Notes: generated by a model from the sequence alone, not told the origin. 32,000 nt of DNA from Prochlorococcus sp. MIT 0801 (GCF_000757865.1 NZ_CP007754.1:1770001-1802000); one strand, 5' to 3'; positions 13,164-27,140 are shown, counted from the stretch's first letter. Made by a program: numbers and translations.

Positions 13164-13919
13164 ATGTTTCGATCAATAAGATCCGATTTCTCAATTATTA
13201 AAGAGCGAGATCCAGCCGCAAAAGGATTCCTAGAAATTATTCTTTGTTACCCAGGTTTCCAAGCTTTGATAATCCATAGAATTAGCCATCAATTATGGAA
13301 ATCAAAACTTCCACTTATACCAAGAGTGCTGAGTCATATTTCAAGGATTTTCACAGGTGTAGAGATTCATCCAGGAGCAAAGATTGGGCGTGGAGTATTC
13401 ATTGATCATGGCATGGGAGTTGTTATTGGTGAGACTAGTGAAATAGGTAGTCGCTGTCTTCTTTATCAAGGAGTAACTTTGGGAGGAACTGGTAAAGAAA
13501 GTGGCAAAAGGCATCCAACACTTGAGGATAATGTTGTTATTGGAGCCGGTGCCAAAGTACTTGGAGCTATTCACGTAGGAACTAACACAAGAATTGGAGC
13601 TGGCTCAGTGGTAGTTAAAAACGTAGAAGCCAACAGTACTGTTGTTGGAATACCTGGCAGAATTGTTCATCAAAGCGGTGTAAAGATCAACCCTCTTGCG
13701 CACTCTGCTTTGCCTGACACTGAAGCAAATGTAATAAGAAATTTAATGGAGAGAATTGATCAATTAGAAGCTGAAATTCTTTCGCTCAGAAATTCAGCAA
13801 AAAATAAGCTAAAAAATTCTGAACTTATAAATAGTGAAATAAGACCTTCTCAGAGTTTAAAAGATAAAGAAATAATAGAGTTCCTAGGAGAGGAAAACAA
13901 TATTGAAGAACTAAACTAA
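13164..13919 (+). CDS. cysE: serine O-acetyltransferase
   Basis: ORF track, 251 aa. The hexapeptide-repeat core is GAKIGRGVFIDHGMGVVIGETSEIG, LYQGVTLGGTG and RHPTLEDNVVIGAGAKVLG. Confidence 0.9.
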   Translation: MFRSIRSDFSIIKERDPAAKGFLEIILCYPGFQALIIHRISHQLWKSKLPLIPRVLSHISRIFTGVEIHPGAKIGRGVFIDHGMGVVIGETSEIGSRCLLYQGVTLGGTGKESGKRHPTLEDNVVIGAGAKVLGAIHVGTNTRIGAGSVVVKNVEANSTVVGIPGRIVHQSGVKINPLAHSALPDTEANVIRNLMERIDQLEAEILSLRNSAKNKLKNSELINSEIRPSQSLKDKEIIEFLGEENNIEELN

Positions 13920-14708
13920 AAAGGGTAACTCCCTAGTACTTTTTTGCAATAAGAAAAAAGAAATCAGAATACCAACTATATTCACTAATAAAGTGATAAA
14001 AACAAGCTTATAATCAACATTACCTTGAATTAGCGACACCCTAAGTGGTTCGAGAATTTTGTATATCAAATTATAATTAGTTATCCATTCCAAACCTCCG
14101 AGATTTTCCTTTCTATATAATATGGGTGAGGTTAGAAAAACTAATTGCAATATAATTGGTACTAATTGTGCAAAGTCTGTATATCTGACACCAACTAAAC
14201 AAATAATAAGAGGAAACCAATATAAAAACATTAAAAGATTAATAAATGGAAGCCAAGAAAACAAAATAATATTAAATATAAGAGATTTTTTAATAAATAA
14301 AAGAATAAAGAATACAAGTGAAAAAGACTGGAAAAAGGTTTGAATTTGGAATGCCCATTCTTCTAGTGTATAGAACAGTGGATTAATATTTATGTTCTTT
14401 ATATTCTGAGAGTTATGAGCAAATAAATCAGGCGCAGAAGATATTGAAGAAGAAATAGTATTCCAAATAACTAAACCAATTCCCAAGTATACAAAATATT
14501 CTTTAAAGTCATTAACTGAAAAAACCGTTCCATAAACTATACCCAGTGTTGATATTGACAATAAATTAGAAAAACCTAACCAAAAGCTTCCAAGATTGGT
14601 TTTTGCAAATCTTGCTCGTGTCCTTGATGTAGCTGTATACAACCAAAATCTTCGAGAATTCCAGGCAAATTTTAAATTATCAAGAAGCATAATTATTATT
14701 ATAATCAT
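13911..14708 (-). CDS. ABC-2 type polysaccharide/glycan export permease (Wzm/KpsM/TagG-like)
   Basis: ORF track, 265 aa. It has the N-terminal basic motif RTRARFAKTNLGSFW followed by about 6 hydrophobic segments, typical of ABC-2 permeases. It is translationally overlapped with the upstream ATPase gene. The start is probably the ATG at 14690 (MLLDNLKFAW) rather than 14708. Confidence 0.7.
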   Translation of the reverse strand: MIIIIIMLLDNLKFAWNSRRFWLYTATSRTRARFAKTNLGSFWLGFSNLLSISTLGIVYGTVFSVNDFKEYFVYLGIGLVIWNTISSSISSAPDLFAHNSQNIKNININPLFYTLEEWAFQIQTFFQSFSLVFFILLFIKKSLIFNIILFSWLPFINLLMFLYWFPLIICLVGVRYTDFAQLVPIILQLVFLTSPILYRKENLGGLEWITNYNLIYKILEPLRVSLIQGNVDYKLVFITLLVNIVGILISFFLLQKSTRELPFLV

Positions 14709-16053
14709 GAGTATGATAATAATTTAAGGCGGCATCTAGCTGACCATCATAAACAACAGATCCATGGTTAAAAACTATACCTCTAAAGCAAAATTGTTTC
14801 AAAAGTTGTTCAGAGTGACTTGCTAAAATCAATGTGGTTGCGGAATCCATAAAAGATTGCATTCTCTCCTGAGCTCTTTCAAAGAAATCTGCATCACCAG
14901 TTCCAAAACCTTCATCAATCGCTAAACATTCATGTGGGTATGAAGTCAACATAGAAAAAATCAAACGTGCACACATTCCCTCGCTATATGTTTTGATAGG
15001 TAAATTTATAAATGAACCTAAACCAGAAAAAGTCACAATATCTTCTAAAAAAATATCAAAACCTTTCAAGTTATTATTTATCATTAAATAATAGGCTTTG
15101 GAAGCATCCAATCCACTTAGTTCATTACTTGTCAAAAAAGTTTTTTGGAGCATAGGATAAACCTCTATTTTTTTTATAAATTGACCAGAGTTAGGTGTAT
15201 AAATACCAGATATTAACCTCAGAAAACTACTTTTTCCCGAACCATTATGACCAATCAATGCAACTCGTTCACCATTCATAATAGTTAGATTTATATTTTT
15301 TAAAGCTTCAATATTAGTTCTCTTATCCTTATATACTAATTCTCCACCTATGACACTATTAAACATTTTTTCTGTTAATATTTTTGTAAACTTTCTATTT
15401 TCTGCGCAATAAATTGGTATTTTTAAACTTACATCTTTCAACTGTATTACAGGATCCTTAAGTATTTCGATAGAGTCTAAGGTAATTGATTTCAAGGTAT
15501 CCATAACATGATCTATTGAGGCTATCTTTTCATGATTAAATTGACGAAGAAATACAAATCCTGCATTTAAAGCTTTACCTGTTTTCCATGGATCAAGAGA
15601 TTCAGGCTGATATAAATTAATCCAACTTATGCTAGAACTTACTTTTTTTGTGAATAACTCTGCTGCATTAACCTTGCTCTCCAAAGTTATATAATCTTTT
15701 CTTAATTGATCATTGTTTTTAATATTCCTATCACAAGAAATCAATTCACATACAAAGTCACTAATAATACTTTTACCCTGATCAATTGAAGAATGCCAAT
15801 TATTAATACAATCAAAATCAACTTTCCTACCAAATAAATTCATATGAATATAATTAATCTGGGATTCAATTGATCTATCAGAAAGTATCGATTCCGTATA
15901 TTCATCTTGTGTAGAAATTATCTCTGAAATATCATTAATCGTAGTACCTGGAGGAGAATTGATTAACCAATAATTGATACCAGAAGGATCAGCAGGTCTT
16001 CCAAAATAAGCTATATATAGTTTTTGTATGTGACTAGATTTAACATTCATCAC
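14680..16053 (-). CDS. ABC-2 system ATP-binding protein (Wzt/KpsT/TagH-like) with an N-terminal extension of about 200 aa carrying two DUF4214-like repeats
   Basis: ORF track, 457 aa. The NBD has Walker A GHNGSGKSS, the signature YSEGMCARL (YSxGM type as in Wzt/KpsT), Walker B CLAIDEG, and H-loop ASHS. The N-terminus has IQKLYIAYFGRPADPSGINYW and INYIHMNLFGRKVDFDCINNW. The start is GTG 16053 or ATG 16050. Confidence 0.8.
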   Translation of the reverse strand: MMNVKSSHIQKLYIAYFGRPADPSGINYWLINSPPGTTINDISEIISTQDEYTESILSDRSIESQINYIHMNLFGRKVDFDCINNWHSSIDQGKSIISDFVCELISCDRNIKNNDQLRKDYITLESKVNAAELFTKKVSSSISWINLYQPESLDPWKTGKALNAGFVFLRQFNHEKIASIDHVMDTLKSITLDSIEILKDPVIQLKDVSLKIPIYCAENRKFTKILTEKMFNSVIGGELVYKDKRTNIEALKNINLTIMNGERVALIGHNGSGKSSFLRLISGIYTPNSGQFIKKIEVYPMLQKTFLTSNELSGLDASKAYYLMINNNLKGFDIFLEDIVTFSGLGSFINLPIKTYSEGMCARLIFSMLTSYPHECLAIDEGFGTGDADFFERAQERMQSFMDSATTLILASHSEQLLKQFCFRGIVFNHGSVVYDGQLDAALNYYHTHDYNNNYAS

Positions 16054-20266: not shown

Positions 20267-20458
20267 ATGGCTAAAGTAACAATTGATGGCAAAGAATACA
20301 ATACTGACGAGCTCAGTGATACAGTTAATTCTCAGCTTTTAAGTTTACAGTTTGCCCAAAATGAACTTAAAAGATTAGATGCTCAAATTGCTGTTTTCAA
20401 AACTGCCGTATCAGCTTATTCTCAAGCTCTTAAAGATGAATTATCAAAACAAAGTTAA
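20267..20458 (+). CDS. 63-aa acidic, predicted coiled-coil protein of unknown function (first gene of the secretion-like module)
   Basis: ORF track: MAKVTIDGKEYNTDELSDTVNSQLLSLQFAQNELKRLDAQIAVFKTAVSAYSQALKDELSKQS. It has an ATG start and lies 11 nt upstream of the next gene on the same strand. It has no signal peptide, no Gly-Gly leader and no Cys. Coding status is inferred from operon position and a clean heptad-like sequence. Confidence 0.55.
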   Translation: MAKVTIDGKEYNTDELSDTVNSQLLSLQFAQNELKRLDAQIAVFKTAVSAYSQALKDELSKQS

Positions 20459-20469
20459 CAGCAATTTAA

Positions 20470-21186
20470 ATGGATGAATTAAAAAATCTTGATCAAGCAA
20501 CTATAAAACTTTTACATAAACATGATATTTTACTTGCTTTAATTAAAAATATTTTTTATGAAAAAAGTATTAACGATGTTGAATTAACTTCTATAGAGAA
20601 AAAAAATATTCAAGATCAATTCCGAAAGGAACATAAACTAAATAGCGATGAAGAGTATTACGAATGGATTAAAACTAATAATTTTAAAAAAGATGAATTT
20701 GAAACTAACATTTATTATAATGAAAAATTGAAAAAACTCTGTATAGATAAATTCTTCCACAAAACTGAATCTAGGTTTTTAAAAAGAAAATCGGAACTTG
20801 ATATTGTCGTATATAGCCTAATCAGATTAAAAGATCAATTTCAAGCTAGAGAAATTTACTTAAAACTAAAAGAGCAAGAAGCTAATTTCAATGATTTAGC
20901 ATTCCAATTCTCTGAGGGAGTTGAAAAGGTAACTAAAGGATTAATAGGTCCAATACCTCTTAACAAAGCTCACCCCAAAGTAATCGAAATCCTTAGTTCT
21001 ATAAAACCAGGAGAAATTTACAAACCTTTTACTCTGGATAATTGGCACATTATTCTTCGGTTAGAATCCTTTGAATCTGCAACTCTAGATCACAATATGA
21101 AGTTACATATGGCTAAAGAATTACTAATGGAATGGGTAGAGGAACAATCAAAGTCTATAATGAGTAGATTATTGAGTAATCCATAA
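20470..21186 (+). CDS. parvulin (PpiC/SurA/PrsA)-like peptidyl-prolyl isomerase-domain protein, no signal peptide
   Basis: ORF track, 238 aa. The C-terminal half, AREIYLKLKEQEANFNDLAFQFSEG...GLIGPIPLNKAHPKVIEILSSIKPGEIYKPFTLDNWHIILRLE, aligns by eye to the parvulin rotamase fold (E. coli PpiC ...DFGKLAKKHS...GDLGEF...FGYHIIKV). The N-terminus MDELKNLDQ is hydrophilic. Confidence 0.6.
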   Translation: MDELKNLDQATIKLLHKHDILLALIKNIFYEKSINDVELTSIEKKNIQDQFRKEHKLNSDEEYYEWIKTNNFKKDEFETNIYYNEKLKKLCIDKFFHKTESRFLKRKSELDIVVYSLIRLKDQFQAREIYLKLKEQEANFNDLAFQFSEGVEKVTKGLIGPIPLNKAHPKVIEILSSIKPGEIYKPFTLDNWHIILRLESFESATLDHNMKLHMAKELLMEWVEEQSKSIMSRLLSNP

Positions 21187-21206
21187 TTTACGCAGATTTA
21201 TAGAAA

Positions 21207-24164
21207 ATGGATAACATCAATACTCTTTCACTTAACAACTTACCACCATTCAAACTATTAAGTGAAAAAGCCTTAAACAAAGTCTTAGGTAGCTCAAAAT
21301 CTGTCATTTTTAATATCGGCCAACCATTATCTAAGGAAGAAAATATACAAGATTCAATATTATTTATTCTTGATGGAACTGCAAGACTAATAGGTCAAGA
21401 TGGCAATGAGAACTATACTATTGGCAAATTAGGTGCAGGAGCATTTGTTGGGTTAGCTTCATTGCTTAGAGTCGAAGGTTGTGAAGAAGTAAGTGCCATC
21501 ACTAAAGTAATTGCTTTATCAATACCTGATCAAATTATTATTAGTTTATATGAAGAAGAACCAGATTTTAGAGAATGGTGCAAAAGTAAACTCTTTCCTG
21601 CAGAAATACATTCTTTAGTGAGAAATCTGGCAAATGAAAACGCATTACAAGAGAATAACTTCATGTCTTTCTTTAAAGATTCATTAGCTCAAGTTAATCT
21701 ACATACTCTTCAAAATAATGAATATCTAAAAGAAGATAAAAATAGAATATTTTTTACTGCAAGTTCAAATATCGAAAATCATAATTTACATCAAATAATA
21801 GATCATAAGACTAAATTAATTGCCCGTCCACCGTTAGAGACAAGAATAATTTCTATACCTATAGATTTTTATAGATCAATAAGCAAACAGAAGGAAGATA
21901 TTTCACAGAATGAAACTGAAATAAACAATAATCTCATAGAAACCGATTCTAAAAATTTAGCACCAATTTTACCTAGCCGCAGTAGTATTGATTTGGGAAA
22001 AAATACAAATAAGAAATTTAAAAACAGAGCAATAATCAGAGCAAAAGGTAGGGCTGAAGAGGCACTTGCTTGTCTACAAATGTTATCTATACAAATGGAT
22101 TTGCCATTCAGAAAAGATGCTGTTCAAAAAATCTTAAGAGATAATTTGTCTGATGGCAGAGCACCAACAATGGAGCTTTTAGGCGGCATATGTGCAATGC
22201 TTGGATTACATGCTGGAAGTGCAAGAATATCCGCAGAGAGTGGTACTCGGTTGCAAACTCCATCTCTAATTCCATGGAAAGGAAGTTTTGTATTGGTTCA
22301 AGAAAGTAATTCCAAAGGATTAGTTATTGCATCACCTAGTGAGGGTGAATTAATAATTAATTCCGAAGAACTAGAGGATATTTTTCCCGATGGTATTGAA
22401 GTTCTATTTGTAGATAGAACCAACTCAAGTCCTCAAATTAAATTTGGAGCAAATTGGTTTTGGCCATCACTTAAAAAATATAAAACAGTTTTATCTCAAG
22501 TATTTTTAGCTTCATTCATCGTTCAACTTTTTGGTTTAGCTAATCCTTTATTAATCCAGGTTATTATCGACAAAGTCATTAATCAAAGAAGTTTAGACAC
22601 TCTTCAAATACTTGGTATTGCCCTCATTTTTGTAACTATTCTTGGTGGCATAATGGGTGGTCTAAGAACATTTATGTTTACAGAAACTACGAATCGTATA
22701 GATACCAGATTAGGATCTGAAGTTATAGATCATTTATTAAGATTACCACTTAATTATTTTGATAAAAGACCCGTTGGTGAACTCGGAAGTCGAATTGCAG
22801 AATTAGAAAAGATTAGAAACTTTTTAACTGGTCAAGCCCTTACAACTGTTCTTGATGCGGCATTCTCTGTAATATATATATTAGTGATGGTTATTTATAG
22901 CTGGCTATTAACATTTATAGCTTTAGCAGTTGTTCCTTTACAAGTTGGTTTAACTTTAATAGGAACTCCTTTAATAAGAAAACAAATAAGAGAGGTCGCA
23001 ATTGAAAATGCAAATACACAAAGTCACCTAGTTGAAGTTCTTACTGGAATTCAAACGGTAAAAGCACAAAATGTTGAAACTGTTAGTCGTTGGAAATGGC
23101 AAAACCTTTACAATAAATACATTTCCAGAACATTTGAGAGAACCATAACTGGGACAGCTTTAAACGAAACTAGTCAAGTATTACAGCAACTCTCTCAACT
23201 GCTAGTCCTTTGGGTTGGTGCTTCTTTAGTTTTATCTGGGAAACTAACATTAGGTCAACTAATTGCTTTTAGAATAATTTCTGGTTACGTAACACAACCA
23301 CTTCTAAGACTCAGTACTATTTGGCAAAACCTACAAGAATTGAGAGTTTCTTTCGAAAGATTAGCCGATATAATTGACACCCCTGAGGAATCTTCAGAAT
23401 CCGACAAAACCAACATTCCACTACCATCTATAAAAGGTAAAGTAGAGTTCAAAAATGTATCTTTTGCTTTTGATAACAGTGAAATTAATGTATTAAATAA
23501 CATTAACCTTGATATAGATCAGGGAACTTTTACTGGAATAGTTGGACAGAGCGGAAGCGGAAAAAGCACTTTAATGAAATTGCTTCCAAGACTATATAGC
23601 CCTAATTCAGGAACAATAAAAATAGATAACTATGACATTAATAAAGTTGAACTTTATTCTTTGAGACGACAAGTAGGTATCGTTCCACAAGACCCTCTGT
23701 TATTTGCTGGAACAGTCAGTGAAAATATTGCATTAACTGATCCTGAGGCATCTAGCGACAAAATTGTGCAAGCTGCAAGAATCGCTGGTGCTCATGAGTT
23801 TATAATGGAATTACCAAATGGATATAGTTCAAATGTAGGAGAGAGAGGAGCTGGGCTTTCAGGCGGTCAAAGACAAAGAATTGCAATAGCTAGAACAATA
23901 ATCAGTAAACCTAAACTTCTTATAATGGATGAGGCTACTAGTGCACTTGATTACAACACTGAGAGGCAAGTCTGCGACAACTTAAAAGAATTCTGTAAAA
24001 ACACAACAGTATTTTTCATTACGCACCGCTTAAGTACAATCAAAAATGCCGATTTAGTTGTGATGTTACACCAAGGATCATTATGTGAAATTGGCACCCA
24101 TGAAGAGCTAATGAATAAACTTGGAAGGTACTATGCTCTTTATAGACAGCAGGAGGCAAGTTGA
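21207..24164 (+). CDS. ABC exporter (type I secretion / bacteriocin-exporter architecture): cNMP-binding-like domain + C39-peptidase-like domain + 6-TM domain + NBD
   Basis: ORF track, 985 aa. The NBD has Walker A GQSGSGKST, signature LSGGQRQRIAIAR, Walker B LLIMDEATSALD and H-loop ITHRL. The TM domain spans roughly residues 425-700. The N-terminal CAP-effector-like segment is FNIGQPLSKEENIQDSILFILDGTARLIG...GAGAFVGLASLL. The C39-like segment covers about residues 275-405. Confidence 0.85.
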   Translation: MDNINTLSLNNLPPFKLLSEKALNKVLGSSKSVIFNIGQPLSKEENIQDSILFILDGTARLIGQDGNENYTIGKLGAGAFVGLASLLRVEGCEEVSAITKVIALSIPDQIIISLYEEEPDFREWCKSKLFPAEIHSLVRNLANENALQENNFMSFFKDSLAQVNLHTLQNNEYLKEDKNRIFFTASSNIENHNLHQIIDHKTKLIARPPLETRIISIPIDFYRSISKQKEDISQNETEINNNLIETDSKNLAPILPSRSSIDLGKNTNKKFKNRAIIRAKGRAEEALACLQMLSIQMDLPFRKDAVQKILRDNLSDGRAPTMELLGGICAMLGLHAGSARISAESGTRLQTPSLIPWKGSFVLVQESNSKGLVIASPSEGELIINSEELEDIFPDGIEVLFVDRTNSSPQIKFGANWFWPSLKKYKTVLSQVFLASFIVQLFGLANPLLIQVIIDKVINQRSLDTLQILGIALIFVTILGGIMGGLRTFMFTETTNRIDTRLGSEVIDHLLRLPLNYFDKRPVGELGSRIAELEKIRNFLTGQALTTVLDAAFSVIYILVMVIYSWLLTFIALAVVPLQVGLTLIGTPLIRKQIREVAIENANTQSHLVEVLTGIQTVKAQNVETVSRWKWQNLYNKYISRTFERTITGTALNETSQVLQQLSQLLVLWVGASLVLSGKLTLGQLIAFRIISGYVTQPLLRLSTIWQNLQELRVSFERLADIIDTPEESSESDKTNIPLPSIKGKVEFKNVSFAFDNSEINVLNNINLDIDQGTFTGIVGQSGSGKSTLMKLLPRLYSPNSGTIKIDNYDINKVELYSLRRQVGIVPQDPLLFAGTVSENIALTDPEASSDKIVQAARIAGAHEFIMELPNGYSSNVGERGAGLSGGQRQRIAIARTIISKPKLLIMDEATSALDYNTERQVCDNLKEFCKNTTVFFITHRLSTIKNADLVVMLHQGSLCEIGTHEELMNKLGRYYALYRQQEAS

Positions 24165-25300
24165 TTAATAAAATTAAAAAACTAAATATTTCTTCGTTAT
24201 ATGAAAAAAACTTTTGGATAAATAATAAAAAAATTATTCTTGATAAAATCAAAATCAATAAATTAGTTAAAAAATTCAATTATTTAAGACAGAATAATAT
24301 TATTGGAAAAACATATAATCAAATTTCACTTGATAAAATAGAACCTAATAGATGGATTAAGAAATTAAAAGATTTCAGTGAAAAAGCTATTGCTCGAAAC
24401 TCAAATGAAGTTGTTTTAAAAGATTCAACTTATTGGGCAAGCGCAATTAGTTGGTCAATTATGGGTGGAACTGTGTTTGGCTTAAGTTGGTTGGCATTTG
24501 CCAAGACAGAAGAGATAGTAATCGCTCAAGGGAAACTCGAACCAATAAATGGTGTAGTAGATGTTCAAATGCCTTTTGAGGGTATCATTGGAGAAATACT
24601 TGTTGAGGAAGGTGAGAAAGTTGAAAAAGGTCAAATCCTACTTAAATTAGATACCGAAGTGACTGATGCAAGGAGAAAAGCATTATCTAATAGTTTATTG
24701 ATTAGTAAAGATTTGCTAGAAAGATATAAAGCTCTTGTTAAAGAAGGGGCAATTGCAGAAATACAGCTTCTCGATCAACAAAATAAAATTTCTGAATTAG
24801 AAAGCAGGATAGCCGAGTCAAACGTCACACTAAAATATCAATCGATTATTGCACCTTCAAATGGAATAGTTTTTGATTTGAAGCCAAAAGCATCTGGTTT
24901 TGTTGGGAGAACAACCGAGCCAGTCATGAAAATAGTCCCTATTGAAAAACTAAAAGCAACAGTAGAAATAGCAAGCAAAGATATAGGTTTTGTAAGTGTT
25001 GGTAAATCAGTGGATATAAGTATTGATTCATTTCCTGCTACAGATTTTGGAGTAATTCACGGACAGGTAACTAAAATTGGATCCGATGCATTGGTGCCCG
25101 AGCCATCTCAAAATAAGGGGTTTAGGTTCCCTGCAGATATCAAATTGGAATCACAGCACTTAATCTTAAAGAATAAAAAAAGGCTACCATTGCAAACAGG
25201 TATGAGTCTTACTGCAAATATAAAATTAAGAAAAGTTAGCTATCTACAATTGCTTTTAAATAATTTTGAAGACAAAGCTGATTCTTTGAGAGCTCTATAA
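24161..25300 (+). CDS. HlyD-family membrane fusion / periplasmic adaptor protein
   Basis: ORF track, 379 aa. The TTG start overlaps the ABC gene stop by 4 nt, with AGGAGG at 24151-24156. It has one TM segment (WASAISWSIMGGTVFGLSWLAF), a lipoyl-like motif (GIIGEILVEEGEKVEKGQILLKLD), a short coiled-coil hairpin, and a beta-barrel (IIAPSNGIVFDL...). Confidence 0.8.
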   Translation: MINKIKKLNISSLYEKNFWINNKKIILDKIKINKLVKKFNYLRQNNIIGKTYNQISLDKIEPNRWIKKLKDFSEKAIARNSNEVVLKDSTYWASAISWSIMGGTVFGLSWLAFAKTEEIVIAQGKLEPINGVVDVQMPFEGIIGEILVEEGEKVEKGQILLKLDTEVTDARRKALSNSLLISKDLLERYKALVKEGAIAEIQLLDQQNKISELESRIAESNVTLKYQSIIAPSNGIVFDLKPKASGFVGRTTEPVMKIVPIEKLKATVEIASKDIGFVSVGKSVDISIDSFPATDFGVIHGQVTKIGSDALVPEPSQNKGFRFPADIKLESQHLILKNKKRLPLQTGMSLTANIKLRKVSYLQLLLNNFEDKADSLRAL

Positions 25301-25303
25301 AAA

Positions 25304-25909
25304 TTGAGTATTAACTATAAAAAAAAGTTTCTCCATGTTGGATGCGGAGTTAAAGACATCTCTAATACTCCTTTTAAGTTATCAAGTTGGGAAGAAATTA
25401 GATTTGATATTGATCCGCAAGTAAATCCTGATGTTGTTGGAAGTATGACAGAGATGAATAACATTGAAAATAATTCACTAGATGCAATTTTCTCATCTCA
25501 TAATATTGAGCATTTATATCCACACGAAGTCACAGTAGCATTAAAAGAATTTCAAAAAAAACTTAAACCTCAAGGATTTATTTTGATAACATGCCCTGAT
25601 TTAAAGTCTGTTTGTTCACTTGTTGTACAAGATAAATTACTCGAACCTGCTTATGAAAGTGGCAAAGGACCTATCTCGCCATTAGATATAATTTACGGTC
25701 ACAGAAGTTCAATTGCAAAAGGTAATACATTTATGGCACATAAATGCGGATTCACAGAGAAAGTGCTTATCAAAGTTCTTCAAAAATCTGGTTTTTGTCA
25801 AGTTATAAGTCAAACGAGAAGTTCGGAATTTGATATTTGGGCATTGGCAACTTGTAAGGAATGGCAAGAAAAAGATATAAAATCTTTAGCAATAGATTTA
25901 TTTCCATAA
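25304..25909 (+). CDS. small class I SAM-dependent methyltransferase
   Basis: ORF track, 201 aa. Motif I is FLHVGCG near the N-terminus, followed by an acidic-loop D (IRFDID) and LDAIFSSHNIEHL (Methyltransf_11-like). The TTG start lies 3 nt after the HlyD stop and in the same frame. Confidence 0.7.
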   Translation: MSINYKKKFLHVGCGVKDISNTPFKLSSWEEIRFDIDPQVNPDVVGSMTEMNNIENNSLDAIFSSHNIEHLYPHEVTVALKEFQKKLKPQGFILITCPDLKSVCSLVVQDKLLEPAYESGKGPISPLDIIYGHRSSIAKGNTFMAHKCGFTEKVLIKVLQKSGFCQVISQTRSSEFDIWALATCKEWQEKDIKSLAIDLFP

Positions 25910-25910
25910 T

Positions 25911-27140
25911 TCATAAAAGACTTTTAACCCATGAAATTTGCTTTGGTAAGCATATAGTTTTCAAATCGTAAGTTTTCACAATAAATTTTCTGGCATTCTC
26001 AGATAGTTTTGATCGTAATTTAAAATTATTTAAAATACTTAAGATTTGTTTTGAAAGATCCTCAAAATCAAAAAAATCTACATACACACCATTTTCATGA
26101 TCTTTTATAATTTCATGTAAGGGTTCTGTATTACTGACAATCACAGGACAACCAATACTCATTGCCTCCAATAAACTCCAAGAGAGTACAAATGGATAGG
26201 TTAAATATACATGAATAGTTGATATTTGTAAAACAGACATATATTTATCATATGTCAAAGTTCCAAGAAAGATTACTCTTTTATATTGATCATCGGTCAA
26301 TTTCTCTTTAACCTCATTGGCATAAATATCTTTCCAAGTTTTACCATTCTCAGGGAGGGTTCCATAACTAGTTGAGTCTCCTCCTACAATTAATACATAT
26401 AAATTAGGCCTTTCCTTTAATATCTTAGGTAATGACCTCATAAAAGTATGAAATCCTCGATAAGGCTCGAGATTACGATTGACAAAGGTTATAATCTCAT
26501 TACTTTTTGATAATTTCAATCCAGAATCTAAAGTAATTTCAATCGAATCATTAGGCCTTAATAAAGTAGTATTTATACCATCATGAATAACACTAATTTT
26601 TTTTTGGAAATATTCTGGAAAGGTACTTTTTTGCCATTTGGTTGGACTAATACCAACATCAGCAATTTGTAAATGAAGATTATTATTAATATTTTTCATC
26701 ATTACTCTACATGGATCACCAGGGTCCGTAATCGGAAATTCAGGATCAAAATTAATATCTGCTCCTAAAGAACGATAAAAGAATTCGCAGTAAATAGCTA
26801 TTTTGGCATCAGGCCATATTTCTTTTAAAAATAGACTTTCTCCCCATGCTGGATGAGAAATTATAAGATTTGGTTTATATCCTTTTTGACATAATTCATA
26901 TGCAGCCCTAAAACAATATTCTCCTCTAATAGTTTTAGTTTCTAAATCAGTAAGCCAAGGATGTATATTTTTCGAACTTGATCGTTTAATAGGATAATTA
27001 AAAAATCGTATTCCATCAATATTTTTAGAAACTGATTGTGAATTGGTCAAGGTGGTTATATTAAGTCCTTCACGAACAAGAGCAGGGGCTAAATGAATAA
27101 ACTGGGCTGGAAAATTTTGATGTATAAATAATATATCCAT
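25911..27140 (-). CDS. GT-B fold glycosyltransferase (group 1 / GT4-like)
   Basis: ORF track, 409 aa. The C-terminal motif LLEAMSIGCPVIVSNTEPLHEIIKDHENGVYVDF is the EAM-x-G-x-PV...E...G signature of retaining GT4 enzymes. It is the last gene of the minus-strand operon. Confidence 0.75.
   Translation of the reverse strand: MDILFIHQNFPAQFIHLAPALVREGLNITTLTNSQSVSKNIDGIRFFNYPIKRSSSKNIHPWLTDLETKTIRGEYCFRAAYELCQKGYKPNLIISHPAWGESLFLKEIWPDAKIAIYCEFFYRSLGADINFDPEFPITDPGDPCRVMMKNINNNLHLQIADVGISPTKWQKSTFPEYFQKKISVIHDGINTTLLRPNDSIEITLDSGLKLSKSNEIITFVNRNLEPYRGFHTFMRSLPKILKERPNLYVLIVGGDSTSYGTLPENGKTWKDIYANEVKEKLTDDQYKRVIFLGTLTYDKYMSVLQISTIHVYLTYPFVLSWSLLEAMSIGCPVIVSNTEPLHEIIKDHENGVYVDFFDFEDLSKQILSILNNFKLRSKLSENARKFIVKTYDLKTICLPKQISWVKSLL

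Follow-up and report, generated by a model that had tools for sequence, protein, structure and literature searches.

The closest described counterparts of the locus analyzed here are the hemolysin-type and the cyanobacterial S-layer-type type I secretion systems (T1SS). In the Escherichia coli hemolysin system, HlyB/HlyD/TolC with the cargo HlyA, a half-size ATP-binding cassette (ABC) transporter with a non-catalytic C39-like domain is accompanied by an adjacent gene for the HlyD adaptor and an unlinked channel gene, an arrangement shared by our locus. The C39-like domains (CLDs) of T1SS exporters are without proteolytic function; active C39 exporters carry peptides of up to ~10 kDa, and CLD exporters pair with RTX cargo of >50 kDa bearing a C-terminal signal (PMC8277102). 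For Synechocystis PCC 6803, PMC11594277, citing Agarwal 2018, describes export of the S-layer RTX protein Sll1951 by the ABC protein Sll1180, the adaptor Sll1181, and the TolC homologue Slr1270, their outer-membrane partner. In this study, we examined a stretch of 32,000 nucleotides from Prochlorococcus sp. MIT 0801 (GCF_000757865.1 NZ_CP007754.1:1770001-1802000), hereafter the window, in which five plus-strand genes at positions 20267-25909 form a compact apparent operon, previously described from the nucleotide sequence alone (hereafter the sequence-only reading).

We propose that these genes, together with cytoplasmic helpers for the cargo, specify the inner-membrane part of a T1SS of the HlyB/HlyD type, and that its cargo is an RTX/DUF4214 or a metzincin protein; we consider this reading moderately probable. 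Judged from relatives, the exported protein would most likely be either a protease or a surface protein of large size that binds calcium. The known part of the locus is a hemolysin-type or cyanobacterial S-layer-type T1SS, and its distinct parts are the tandem cyclic nucleotide-binding (CNB) N-terminus of the exporter, the PrsA-fold protein encoded in the operon, and a cassette of DUF6447, methyltransferase, and GT4 glycosyltransferase genes. Compared with E. coli HlyB, the exporter has ~275 extra N-terminal residues (two CNB-like domains and a linker). Compared with the hemolysin operon, the locus lacks a cargo gene and an acyltransferase and contains instead the genes of a DUF6447 protein, a cytoplasmic PrsA-like protein, and a methyltransferase. 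The S-layer system of Synechocystis is the cyanobacterial analogue of HlyB/HlyD, likened to the locus by description and not by sequence. We presume that Sll1180 is a protein of ~1000 aa with a similar cNMP-binding N-terminus, and we know of no parvulin-like or DUF6447 partner reported for Sll1180/Sll1181. The SwmA system of Synechococcus WH8102, for which no swmA-like gene was found in the window, was also compared by description, not sequence. The WH8102 cluster SYNW0192-0195, in which SYNW0193 is annotated as an ABC transporter, is reportedly required for the localization of SwmA. Since the module adjoins secA from Prochlorococcus to Cyanobium (L003), an orthologue of it in WH8102 is plausible. 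A connection with a surface (glyco)protein, for which the sequence-only reading invoked SwmA as a loose analogy, is plausible as well; SwmA is a glycosylated RTX S-layer protein (PMC3034196). A literature search returned no description of a Prochlorococcus T1SS with these accessory genes, and the earlier statement that the accessory set could not be matched to a described secretion system holds, with the DUF6447 and parvulin-like proteins still uncharacterized.

The assignment is carried by the third gene (21207-24164, plus strand, ATG start), which encodes the ABC exporter of 985 aa. By far the best family for this protein was TIGR01846 (type_I_sec_HlyB), with 697.3 bits under a curated cutoff of 725.55, compared with 498 bits for LssB-type T1SS, 452 for NHLP bacteriocin, and 409 for MsbA exporters, and 390 bits (cutoff 524) for bacteriocin_ABC TIGR01193. 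Its best solved relative was E. coli HlyB (PDB 7sgr/8dck, 530 bits), with PCAT1 at 347 bits. The Pfam scores were 180 bits for ABC_membrane, 122 for ABC_tran, 30.2 for cNMP_binding, and 28 for Peptidase_C39. The protein consists of a tandem CNB-like region (residues ~1-225), a disordered linker (229-273), a C39-like domain (277-405), a transmembrane domain (432-699), and a nucleotide-binding domain (763-985), the ATPase motifs of which are intact (Walker A 780-788, signature 884-891, Walker B 904-912, H-loop 937-943). The ABC protein is a HlyB-like half-transporter with intact ATPase motifs.

The C39 domain in its N-terminal part (22035-22421, plus strand; Peptidase_C39 match over residues 277-397) is a non-catalytic CLD. 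In the nine-sequence family alignment, the motif of this domain is E-x-L-A-C-[LF]-x-M; in a comparison with the canonical motif of C39 peptidases, D-C-G-x-A-[AC]-L-x-M, the invariant Glu285 occupies the position of the catalytic Cys, where HlyB has Tyr, and Cys289 corresponds to the second Cys, which is common and has no catalytic role. Where the canonical His would stand, the protein has Ser360 (Ser, Thr, Gly, or Arg in relatives), and there is no equivalent of HlyB His83. The CLD alone matched TIGR01846 only, at profile positions 2-132, and a phmmer comparison of the CLD with PDB sequences gave no relevant match. The hhalign comparison with the HlyB N-terminus aligned only the region after the CLD, and the register was therefore taken from motifs and from Pfam/TIGRFAM coordinates; it agrees with the Pfam and TIGR01846 coordinates.

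The AlphaFold model of residues 1-420 (pLDDT 79) matched the tandem cyclic-nucleotide-binding regulatory subunits of PKA/PKG over ~250 columns. Because this tandem match is followed by the C39-like domain, the model gives the exporter three extra N-terminal domains (two CNB-like and one C39-like), and the count of two in the sequence-only reading had to be revised. The first CNB-like domain comprises residues 37-117 (21315-21557, plus strand; cNMP_binding 30.2 bits, gathering score 27.5). Its cassette, located by eye, is VGLASLL…GCEEVSA, with GCEEVxA in the family alignment; the canonical phosphate-binding Glu and Arg could not be recognized by eye, which leaves the ligand uncertain. A word-index search with the N-terminal part of the ABC protein yielded 11 partial matches, enough for a structure model and not for a survey.

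The fourth gene (24161-25300, plus strand, 379 aa, TTG start) encodes the HlyD-type periplasmic adaptor, with Pfam scores of 63 bits for HlyD_3 (above threshold) and 45 bits for HlyD_D23, 162.6 bits for TIGR01843 (cutoff 208.65), and one N-terminal membrane helix at residues ~95-113. The adaptor is translationally coupled to the ABC gene, at the end of which a Shine-Dalgarno-like AGGAGG (24151-24156, plus strand) lies 4 nt 5' of the adaptor TTG. No TolC-like outer-membrane factor was detected among the scanned ORFs (open reading frames) of the window, which lie downstream of ~12 kb, and for these the earlier remark on its absence holds; it is usual for T1SS that TolC is encoded away from the exporter.

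The second gene (20470-21186, plus strand, ATG start) encodes a parvulin-like, PrsA/SurA-type chaperone-like protein of 238 aa. The Pfam Rotamase profile (PF00639) matched it with 35.4 bits (gathering score 21.7), and it has no hydrophobic N-terminus (best 19-residue Kyte-Doolittle mean 0.83), in agreement with its earlier description as signal-less and parvulin-like. Because the N-terminus is not hydrophobic, the protein is presumably cytoplasmic. In the AlphaFold model (pLDDT 93), a parvulin domain is predicted to be inserted into a helical N/C chaperone domain. Foldseek gave full-length matches to PrsA (6vj4, 4wo7, 5tvl, 5htf), SurA, PEB4, and CBF2 with E values of 8e-9 to 1e-4, and the parvulin subdomain superposed on the peptidyl-prolyl isomerase (PPIase) domains of Pin1, PrsA, and SurA at 1.5-3.5 Å. 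Thus, the protein has the same two-part architecture and fold as PrsA, SurA, and PEB4; however, these are extracytoplasmic proteins with a signal peptide or lipid anchor, whereas the 238-aa protein has neither and is without the parvulin catalytic residues. Ser116 aligned with the parvulin His of PrsA, which we take to correspond to Pin1 H59, and the invariant Gly150 stood opposite Pin1 C113. The counterpart of Pin1 H157 is His193 in this protein and Tyr, Phe, Gln, or Trp in most relatives. Judged by these residues, the parvulin domain is probably inactive.

Cytoplasmic anti-folding chaperones can be required by T1SS cargo, as SecB is needed for the secretion of HasA (PMC8277102). In the Serratia Has system, SecB is a general chaperone of unrelated fold encoded elsewhere, whereas here a protein of PrsA/SurA fold is encoded in the operon. 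Membership of the 238-aa protein in TIGR04500 (PpiC-related peptide maturation) was considered and rejected (33.9 bits against a cutoff of 180). Distant parvulin-like paralogues with 22-31% identity (L006:1619-2344, L008:1071-1796) were also seen on very low-GC Prochlorococcus contigs with no adjacent ABC gene, and a diverged DUF6447-like ORF lies beside the L008 copy on the opposite strand (L008:1816-2031, minus strand).

The operon begins with a gene for a 63-aa protein (20267-20458, plus strand, ATG start), which scored 21.4 bits against Pfam DUF6447 (PF20045, gathering score 27). Several of its close homologues (62-84% identity) carry PF20045, and the copy in L011 scored 24.9 bits. By these profile and sequence comparisons, the protein is assigned as a DUF6447 member or a close relative; the earlier description as a coiled-coil protein was correct as to its presence, but it is not merely a generic coiled coil. 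The family profile matched 1444 representative clusters at E<=0.001 and 490 at E<=1e-10, the family comprising ~1400 clusters at 50% identity. Many members are tandem duplicates of ~130 aa (P0063-P0076), and a few copies are located at the extreme C-terminus of TPR proteins (P0150, P0196, P0183). By eye, the catalytic part of P0150 and P0196 resembles GT41 glycosyltransferases, and P0183 is another TPR protein. GT41-like TPR proteins should be cytoplasmic, and DUF6447 as a secreted substrate was rejected on account of its fusion to such enzymes. No Gly-Gly motif was present in 20 aligned members of this family, to which the only small conserved ORF of the locus belongs, and the earlier remark that the window lacks a Gly-Gly peptide holds. 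A literature search found no mention of DUF6447. DUF6447 is probably an adaptor or chaperone for RTX-type cargo or for cargo-modifying enzymes.

Comparison with relatives demonstrated that the core genes for DUF6447, the parvulin-like protein, the ABC exporter, and HlyD recur in ~15 picocyanobacterial contigs. Scanning the genome collection with a seven-sequence parvulin-like alignment returned seven loci. Among the low-GC metagenome contigs found via DUF6447, the parvulin-like gene came next in 12 of 12, the ABC gene in all 7 that reached far enough, and the HlyD gene in 2 of 2. The order parvulin-like gene, ABC, and then HlyD where the contig extends was found in L001, L003, and L005 (Prochlorococcus single-cell genomes and a Cyanobium bin) and in L011, L014, and L017 (marine metagenome or assembly contigs found via chaperone homologues). 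In L007, the order was HlyD, parvulin-like, ABC. The parvulin-like gene adjoins the ABC gene in all picocyanobacterial loci that reach far enough, and a DUF6447 gene was not found in L003, L005, L007, and L014. On this comparative evidence, we conclude that the adjacency of the core genes is not due to chance. The methyltransferase gene follows HlyD in the window and in L017 only, the latter also keeping the convergent GT4 gene. Therefore, the five genes proposed earlier as one co-conserved unit were rejected as such: a four-gene core recurs, but the methyltransferase lies outside it.

Variants of the small protein and the chaperone with 93-97% identity occur in independent metagenomes, and the five-gene layout persists in L017 with a chaperone-like protein of 59% identity. 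The neighborhoods of the module differ greatly from strain to strain, and the set of modification genes seems to vary between strains. Two genes are split in relatives by decay or sequencing error, namely the ABC gene of L017, present as ORFs of 150 aa and 840 aa (L017:3072-6024), and gmd of L001, present as two ORFs (L001:8490-9540). Other modifying enzymes, of kinds common in the modification of proteins or glycans, are also encoded beside the module in relatives (L024:10980-12707, minus strand; L007:4774-7158; L007:16252-20308; L011:7554-8186); among them are a TPR-sulfotransferase, a 2OG-Fe(II) oxygenase, and two putative glycosyltransferases of Maf/MptE-like type.

The sequence-only reading had found no recognizable substrate, which is true of the window; however, genes for RTX proteins, DUF4214 proteins, or metzincins often adjoin homologous modules. 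Downstream of the module of L001, the opposite strand encodes GT4_3, a GT1 of 558 aa, and a protein annotated with DUF4214 and RTX, which is at least 1209 aa long (HemolysinCabind 86 bits, 947 aa scanned). The module of L011 has on its two sides a metzincin of 391 aa, with DUF4214 at its C-terminus (107 bits), and an 864-aa protein with an N-terminal DUF4214 domain, and in L014 a protein of at least 1519 aa, probably a cargo as well, is encoded directly 3' of HlyD. A metzincin-DUF4214 gene is located directly upstream of the DUF6447 gene in L011-13, L018, L020, L021, and L030, and the fragment at the start of L022 is probably another copy. In L047, such a gene lies between secA and gmd, and in L005 the PPIase-like gene is immediately preceded by a diverged copy. 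A homologue of the chaperone in L004 stands beside a 351-aa RTX protein, with no ABC gene within 10 kb. The cargo candidates are acidic and Cys-free or nearly so, several being rich in Ser, Thr, and Gly. The earlier reading would have failed with an RTX substrate consistently encoded beside homologous modules; such genes are adjacent in many relatives, though not in all. The missing substrate is mostly a matter of the window boundary and of strain variation, not of a new kind of secretion system.

The metzincin-DUF4214 proteins (L011:907-2082, L018:1750-2955, L020:258-1439, L021:1-981, L030:3-1133, L047:2430-3614) are ~391-402 aa long, weakly serralysin-like, and have no RTX repeats. Their genes lie between gmd and DUF6447 wherever gmd is visible, except in L047; L026 has a metzincin fragment only, and no metzincin-DUF4214 gene was present in the window. 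A second DUF4214 context was observed in the window itself, where a Wzm/Wzt-like ABC-2 glycan exporter is encoded at 13911-16053 (minus strand). Its ATPase (180 bits to the galactan Wzt/RfbE family) has an N-terminal extension of ~200-250 aa with a DUF4214 domain, and this extension matched the N-terminus of the 864-aa protein of L011 with 75 bits. Caulobacter RsaA binds O-antigen; by analogy, DUF4214 might attach to the surface glycan and so hold the secreted proteins in place on it.

A C-terminal tail of ~70 aa (…AYDDGxDTY…LxGVxDxTxLTAANFxDF) is common to the RTX protein of L001, the 864-aa protein of L011, and the RTX proteins of higher-GC contigs. This tail is probably a T1SS targeting domain. 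The tail hidden Markov model also matched a truncated ORF just upstream of DUF6447 in L048 and had no match in the window; no NCBIfam model matched the tail in the two tail proteins scanned. Tail-bearing proteins are encoded at L001:17885-20725, L011:8246-10840, L039:2-1573, L051:1-1971, L053:3-2936, L060:6677-9499, L064:265-8718, L068:147-5528, and elsewhere, and the tail-carrying gene nearly always ends just upstream of the DUF6447 gene.

In contigs from unrelated bacteria with a GC content of 0.39-0.59, DUF6447 was not found beside the parvulin-like gene or the CNB-CLD ABC gene; generic ABC and HlyD homologues were several kb from DUF6447 in L031 and L060. In eight of these contigs (L032, L039, L046, L051, L053, L060, L064, L068), the DUF6447 gene is located directly downstream of a large RTX gene, the products of which scored 29-144 bits for HemolysinCabind, all above threshold, and in L027 the RTX gene is downstream of DUF6447. 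RTX linkage was observed in ~10 of 24 such higher-GC contigs with enough flank. DUF6447 is typically followed by GT1 (48-53% identical to that of L001), GT4_3 (48-56% identical to the window GT4), and a methyltransferase (53-57% identical to that of the window). Homologues of the window GT4 occur near DUF6447 in L035, L039, L044, L048, L051, L060, and L064 (38-56% identity) and flank the module in L001, L007, and L017. The window methyltransferase is 53-57% identical to those beside DUF6447 and GT4 in contigs with a GC content of 0.39-0.53. From these comparisons, the methyltransferase, DUF6447, and the convergent GT4 are assigned to a cassette that is also found without the picocyanobacterial-type ABC or chaperone. 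L051 also carries SapC, a Pfam family presumably named after the S-layer secretion locus of Campylobacter fetus.

The window methyltransferase and GT4 (25304-27140) are 48-57% identical to genes in L064, L051, L048, and L053, and the GT4 is as similar to its higher-GC homologues as to the Prochlorococcus homologue in L001 (56%). The similarity of the cassette across contigs of different GC content suggests lateral transfer or strong constraint.

Combining these data, the following working of the system may be proposed. By what is known of T1SS, the HlyB/HlyD pair would dock to a TolC-like channel encoded elsewhere and export its cargo in one step; this cargo would be large, acidic, and free of Cys, would travel unfolded, and would bear its signal at the C-terminus. 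Comparative genomics suggests that this cargo would be an RTX and/or DUF4214 surface protein with the ~70-aa tail, or a metzincin with a C-terminal DUF4214 domain; in Prochlorococcus sp. MIT 0801, its gene would lie outside the window or have been lost. The signal-less PrsA/SurA-like protein may act as a cytoplasmic holdase that prevents folding of the cargo, comparable to SecB in the case of HasA, and the GT4 and the methyltransferase may modify this cargo. Since T1SS cargo exits straight from the cytoplasm, modification with nucleotide sugars or S-adenosylmethionine (SAM) would have to precede export there. DUF6447 may dock the cargo or its modifying enzymes to the exporter, a role consistent with its location immediately behind RTX genes and with the fusions to GT41-like enzymes, and the tandem CNB-like domains may gate the exporter in response to a ligand. 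A more specific model, in which DUF6447 recognizes the ~70-aa tail of a widely distributed class of RTX surface proteins and links their glycosylation and methylation in the cytoplasm, carried out by the GT1, GT4_3, and methyltransferase cassette, to export, with the PrsA-like holdase and the CNB-gated HlyB completing the picocyanobacterial pathway, is put forward tentatively; we regard it as possible but doubtful.

Several observations weigh against the reading as a T1SS with RTX/DUF4214 or metzincin cargo. No RTX, DUF4214-cargo, or tail-bearing ORF was found in the 32-kb window or in ~3.8 kb past its end, no cargo was within reach in L007 and L024 either, and the GT1 gene accompanying the cargo elsewhere had no homologue in the window. 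The ABC and HlyD scores fall slightly under the NCBIfam curated cutoffs, the catalytic register of the CLD was set partly by eye against ComA/HlyB/C39 motifs, and the roles given to DUF6447 and to the chaperone-like protein are drawn from fold and gene neighborhood only. The absence of both cargo and GT1 would also be expected of an orphan module, the cargo and GT1 genes having been lost from a hypervariable island and the remaining genes being functionless or decaying. The neighborhoods do vary greatly among strains, and signs of decay are seen in relatives (the split ABC gene of L017, the split gmd of L001, and the metzincin fragment of L026). However, all five ORFs are full length with the ATPase motifs intact, the 93-97% identical variants of the small protein and chaperone recur in independent metagenomes, and L017 has kept the five-gene layout with a chaperone-like protein only 59% identical; moreover, T1SS cargo genes are not always linked to the exporter. 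We judge an orphan module to be unlikely.

The lack of protein cargo in the window, the position of the module between gmd and a glycan operon and beside a Wzm/Wzt-like exporter, and the methyltransferase and GT4 attached to it might instead indicate that the ABC/HlyD pair exports a glycan or glycolipid within the surrounding surface-polysaccharide island; the ABC protein also has sub-threshold matches to MsbA, HepA, and glucan exporters. This explanation seems rather improbable to us, as a C39-like domain and similarity at the level of HlyB are characteristic of protein exporters, the module and DUF6447 repeatedly have RTX, metzincin, or giant proteins encoded beside them, the chaperone-fold protein is tightly linked to the ABC gene, and Wzm/Wzt already provides a dedicated glycan exporter in the window. 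As to the type of protein export, the sequence-only reading had left the choice between a T1SS and a double-glycine peptide exporter. The latter, a bacteriocin-type exporter cleaving a small leader peptide, possibly the 63-aa protein, could account for the Peptidase_C39 match, the weaker matches to the NHLP and bacteriocin ABC families, the small gene at the head of the operon, and the faint resemblance of the parvulin-like protein to the TIGR04500 "peptide maturation system" family (34 bits). However, Glu285 and Ser360 stand at the catalytic positions, and the whole family is without the catalytic Cys and His; HlyB families and structures outscore the bacteriocin exporters by far; the 63-aa family has no Gly-Gly in any aligned member and is fused to the C-terminus of TPR/GT41-like proteins; and the TIGR04500 score compares with a cutoff of 180. 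Thus, the T1SS (HlyB-like) half of the earlier alternative was retained, whereas the double-glycine half, and with it a role in the export of ribosomally synthesized and post-translationally modified peptides (RiPP), was dropped as highly improbable.

In its layout, the operon agreed with the sequence-only reading: all five plus-strand ORFs were found at their positions, the spacings of 11 nt, 20 nt, a 4-nt overlap (TTGA), and 3 nt and the AGGAGG at 24151-24156 were confirmed, and Pfam profile scores upheld the domain calls for all named families. The fifth gene (25304-25909, plus strand, 201 aa, TTG start) encodes the SAM methyltransferase (Pfam Methyltransf_11, 31.9 bits), and it is followed by the GT4 glycosyltransferase gene on the minus strand (25911-27140, 409 aa; Glyco_trans_4_3 190 bits and Glycos_transf_1 87 bits), which is beyond the coordinates of the earlier reading but part of the conserved neighborhood. 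The location in a surface-glycan region was borne out, with gmd upstream (494 bits in Pfam) and a minus-strand glycan cluster downstream, which consists of the GT4, two asparagine-synthase-like genes, a CmcI-type methyltransferase, and a hexapeptide transferase. This cluster extends beyond the end of the window, where genes for a DegT aminotransferase, a sugar isomerase, and a further methyltransferase were found. In the window, secA and gmd are separated by ~200 nt, and gmd and the DUF6447 gene by 104 nt. The GC content is ~0.29-0.36, and the closest relatives are Prochlorococcus single-cell genomes. No terminator was found between the five genes, and the promoter scan was uninformative (32 promoter-like sites against 40.6 expected). 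An AT-rich inverted repeat at the ABC coding start (21223-21270; 20 pairs, 3 of them G-C) was flagged on the minus strand by the terminator scan. This repeat may act in translation or in RNA stability, or may be a chance occurrence in AT-rich DNA.

Cell-surface islands of Prochlorococcus are thought to influence interactions with phages and grazers. The present data place a conserved T1SS core in one such island, with strain-variable cargo and modification genes, and this gives a handle on the surface and secreted proteins displayed by these minimal cells. In addition, two uncharacterized families, DUF6447 and the cytoplasmic PrsA-fold protein, are tied to the export of RTX proteins. The recurrent cassette of RTX, DUF6447, GT1, GT4, and methyltransferase genes points to a cytoplasmic modification of RTX surface proteins that precedes their export in one step; to our knowledge, the glycosylation route of T1SS cargo such as SwmA or oscillin has apparently not been worked out. 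If the reading in which DUF6447 recognizes the tail is true, it would describe a cross-phylum pipeline for RTX surface glycoproteins, in which modification comes first and secretion second, and DUF6447 and the PrsA-like protein would be previously unrecognized, dedicated cytoplasmic accessory factors of T1SS.

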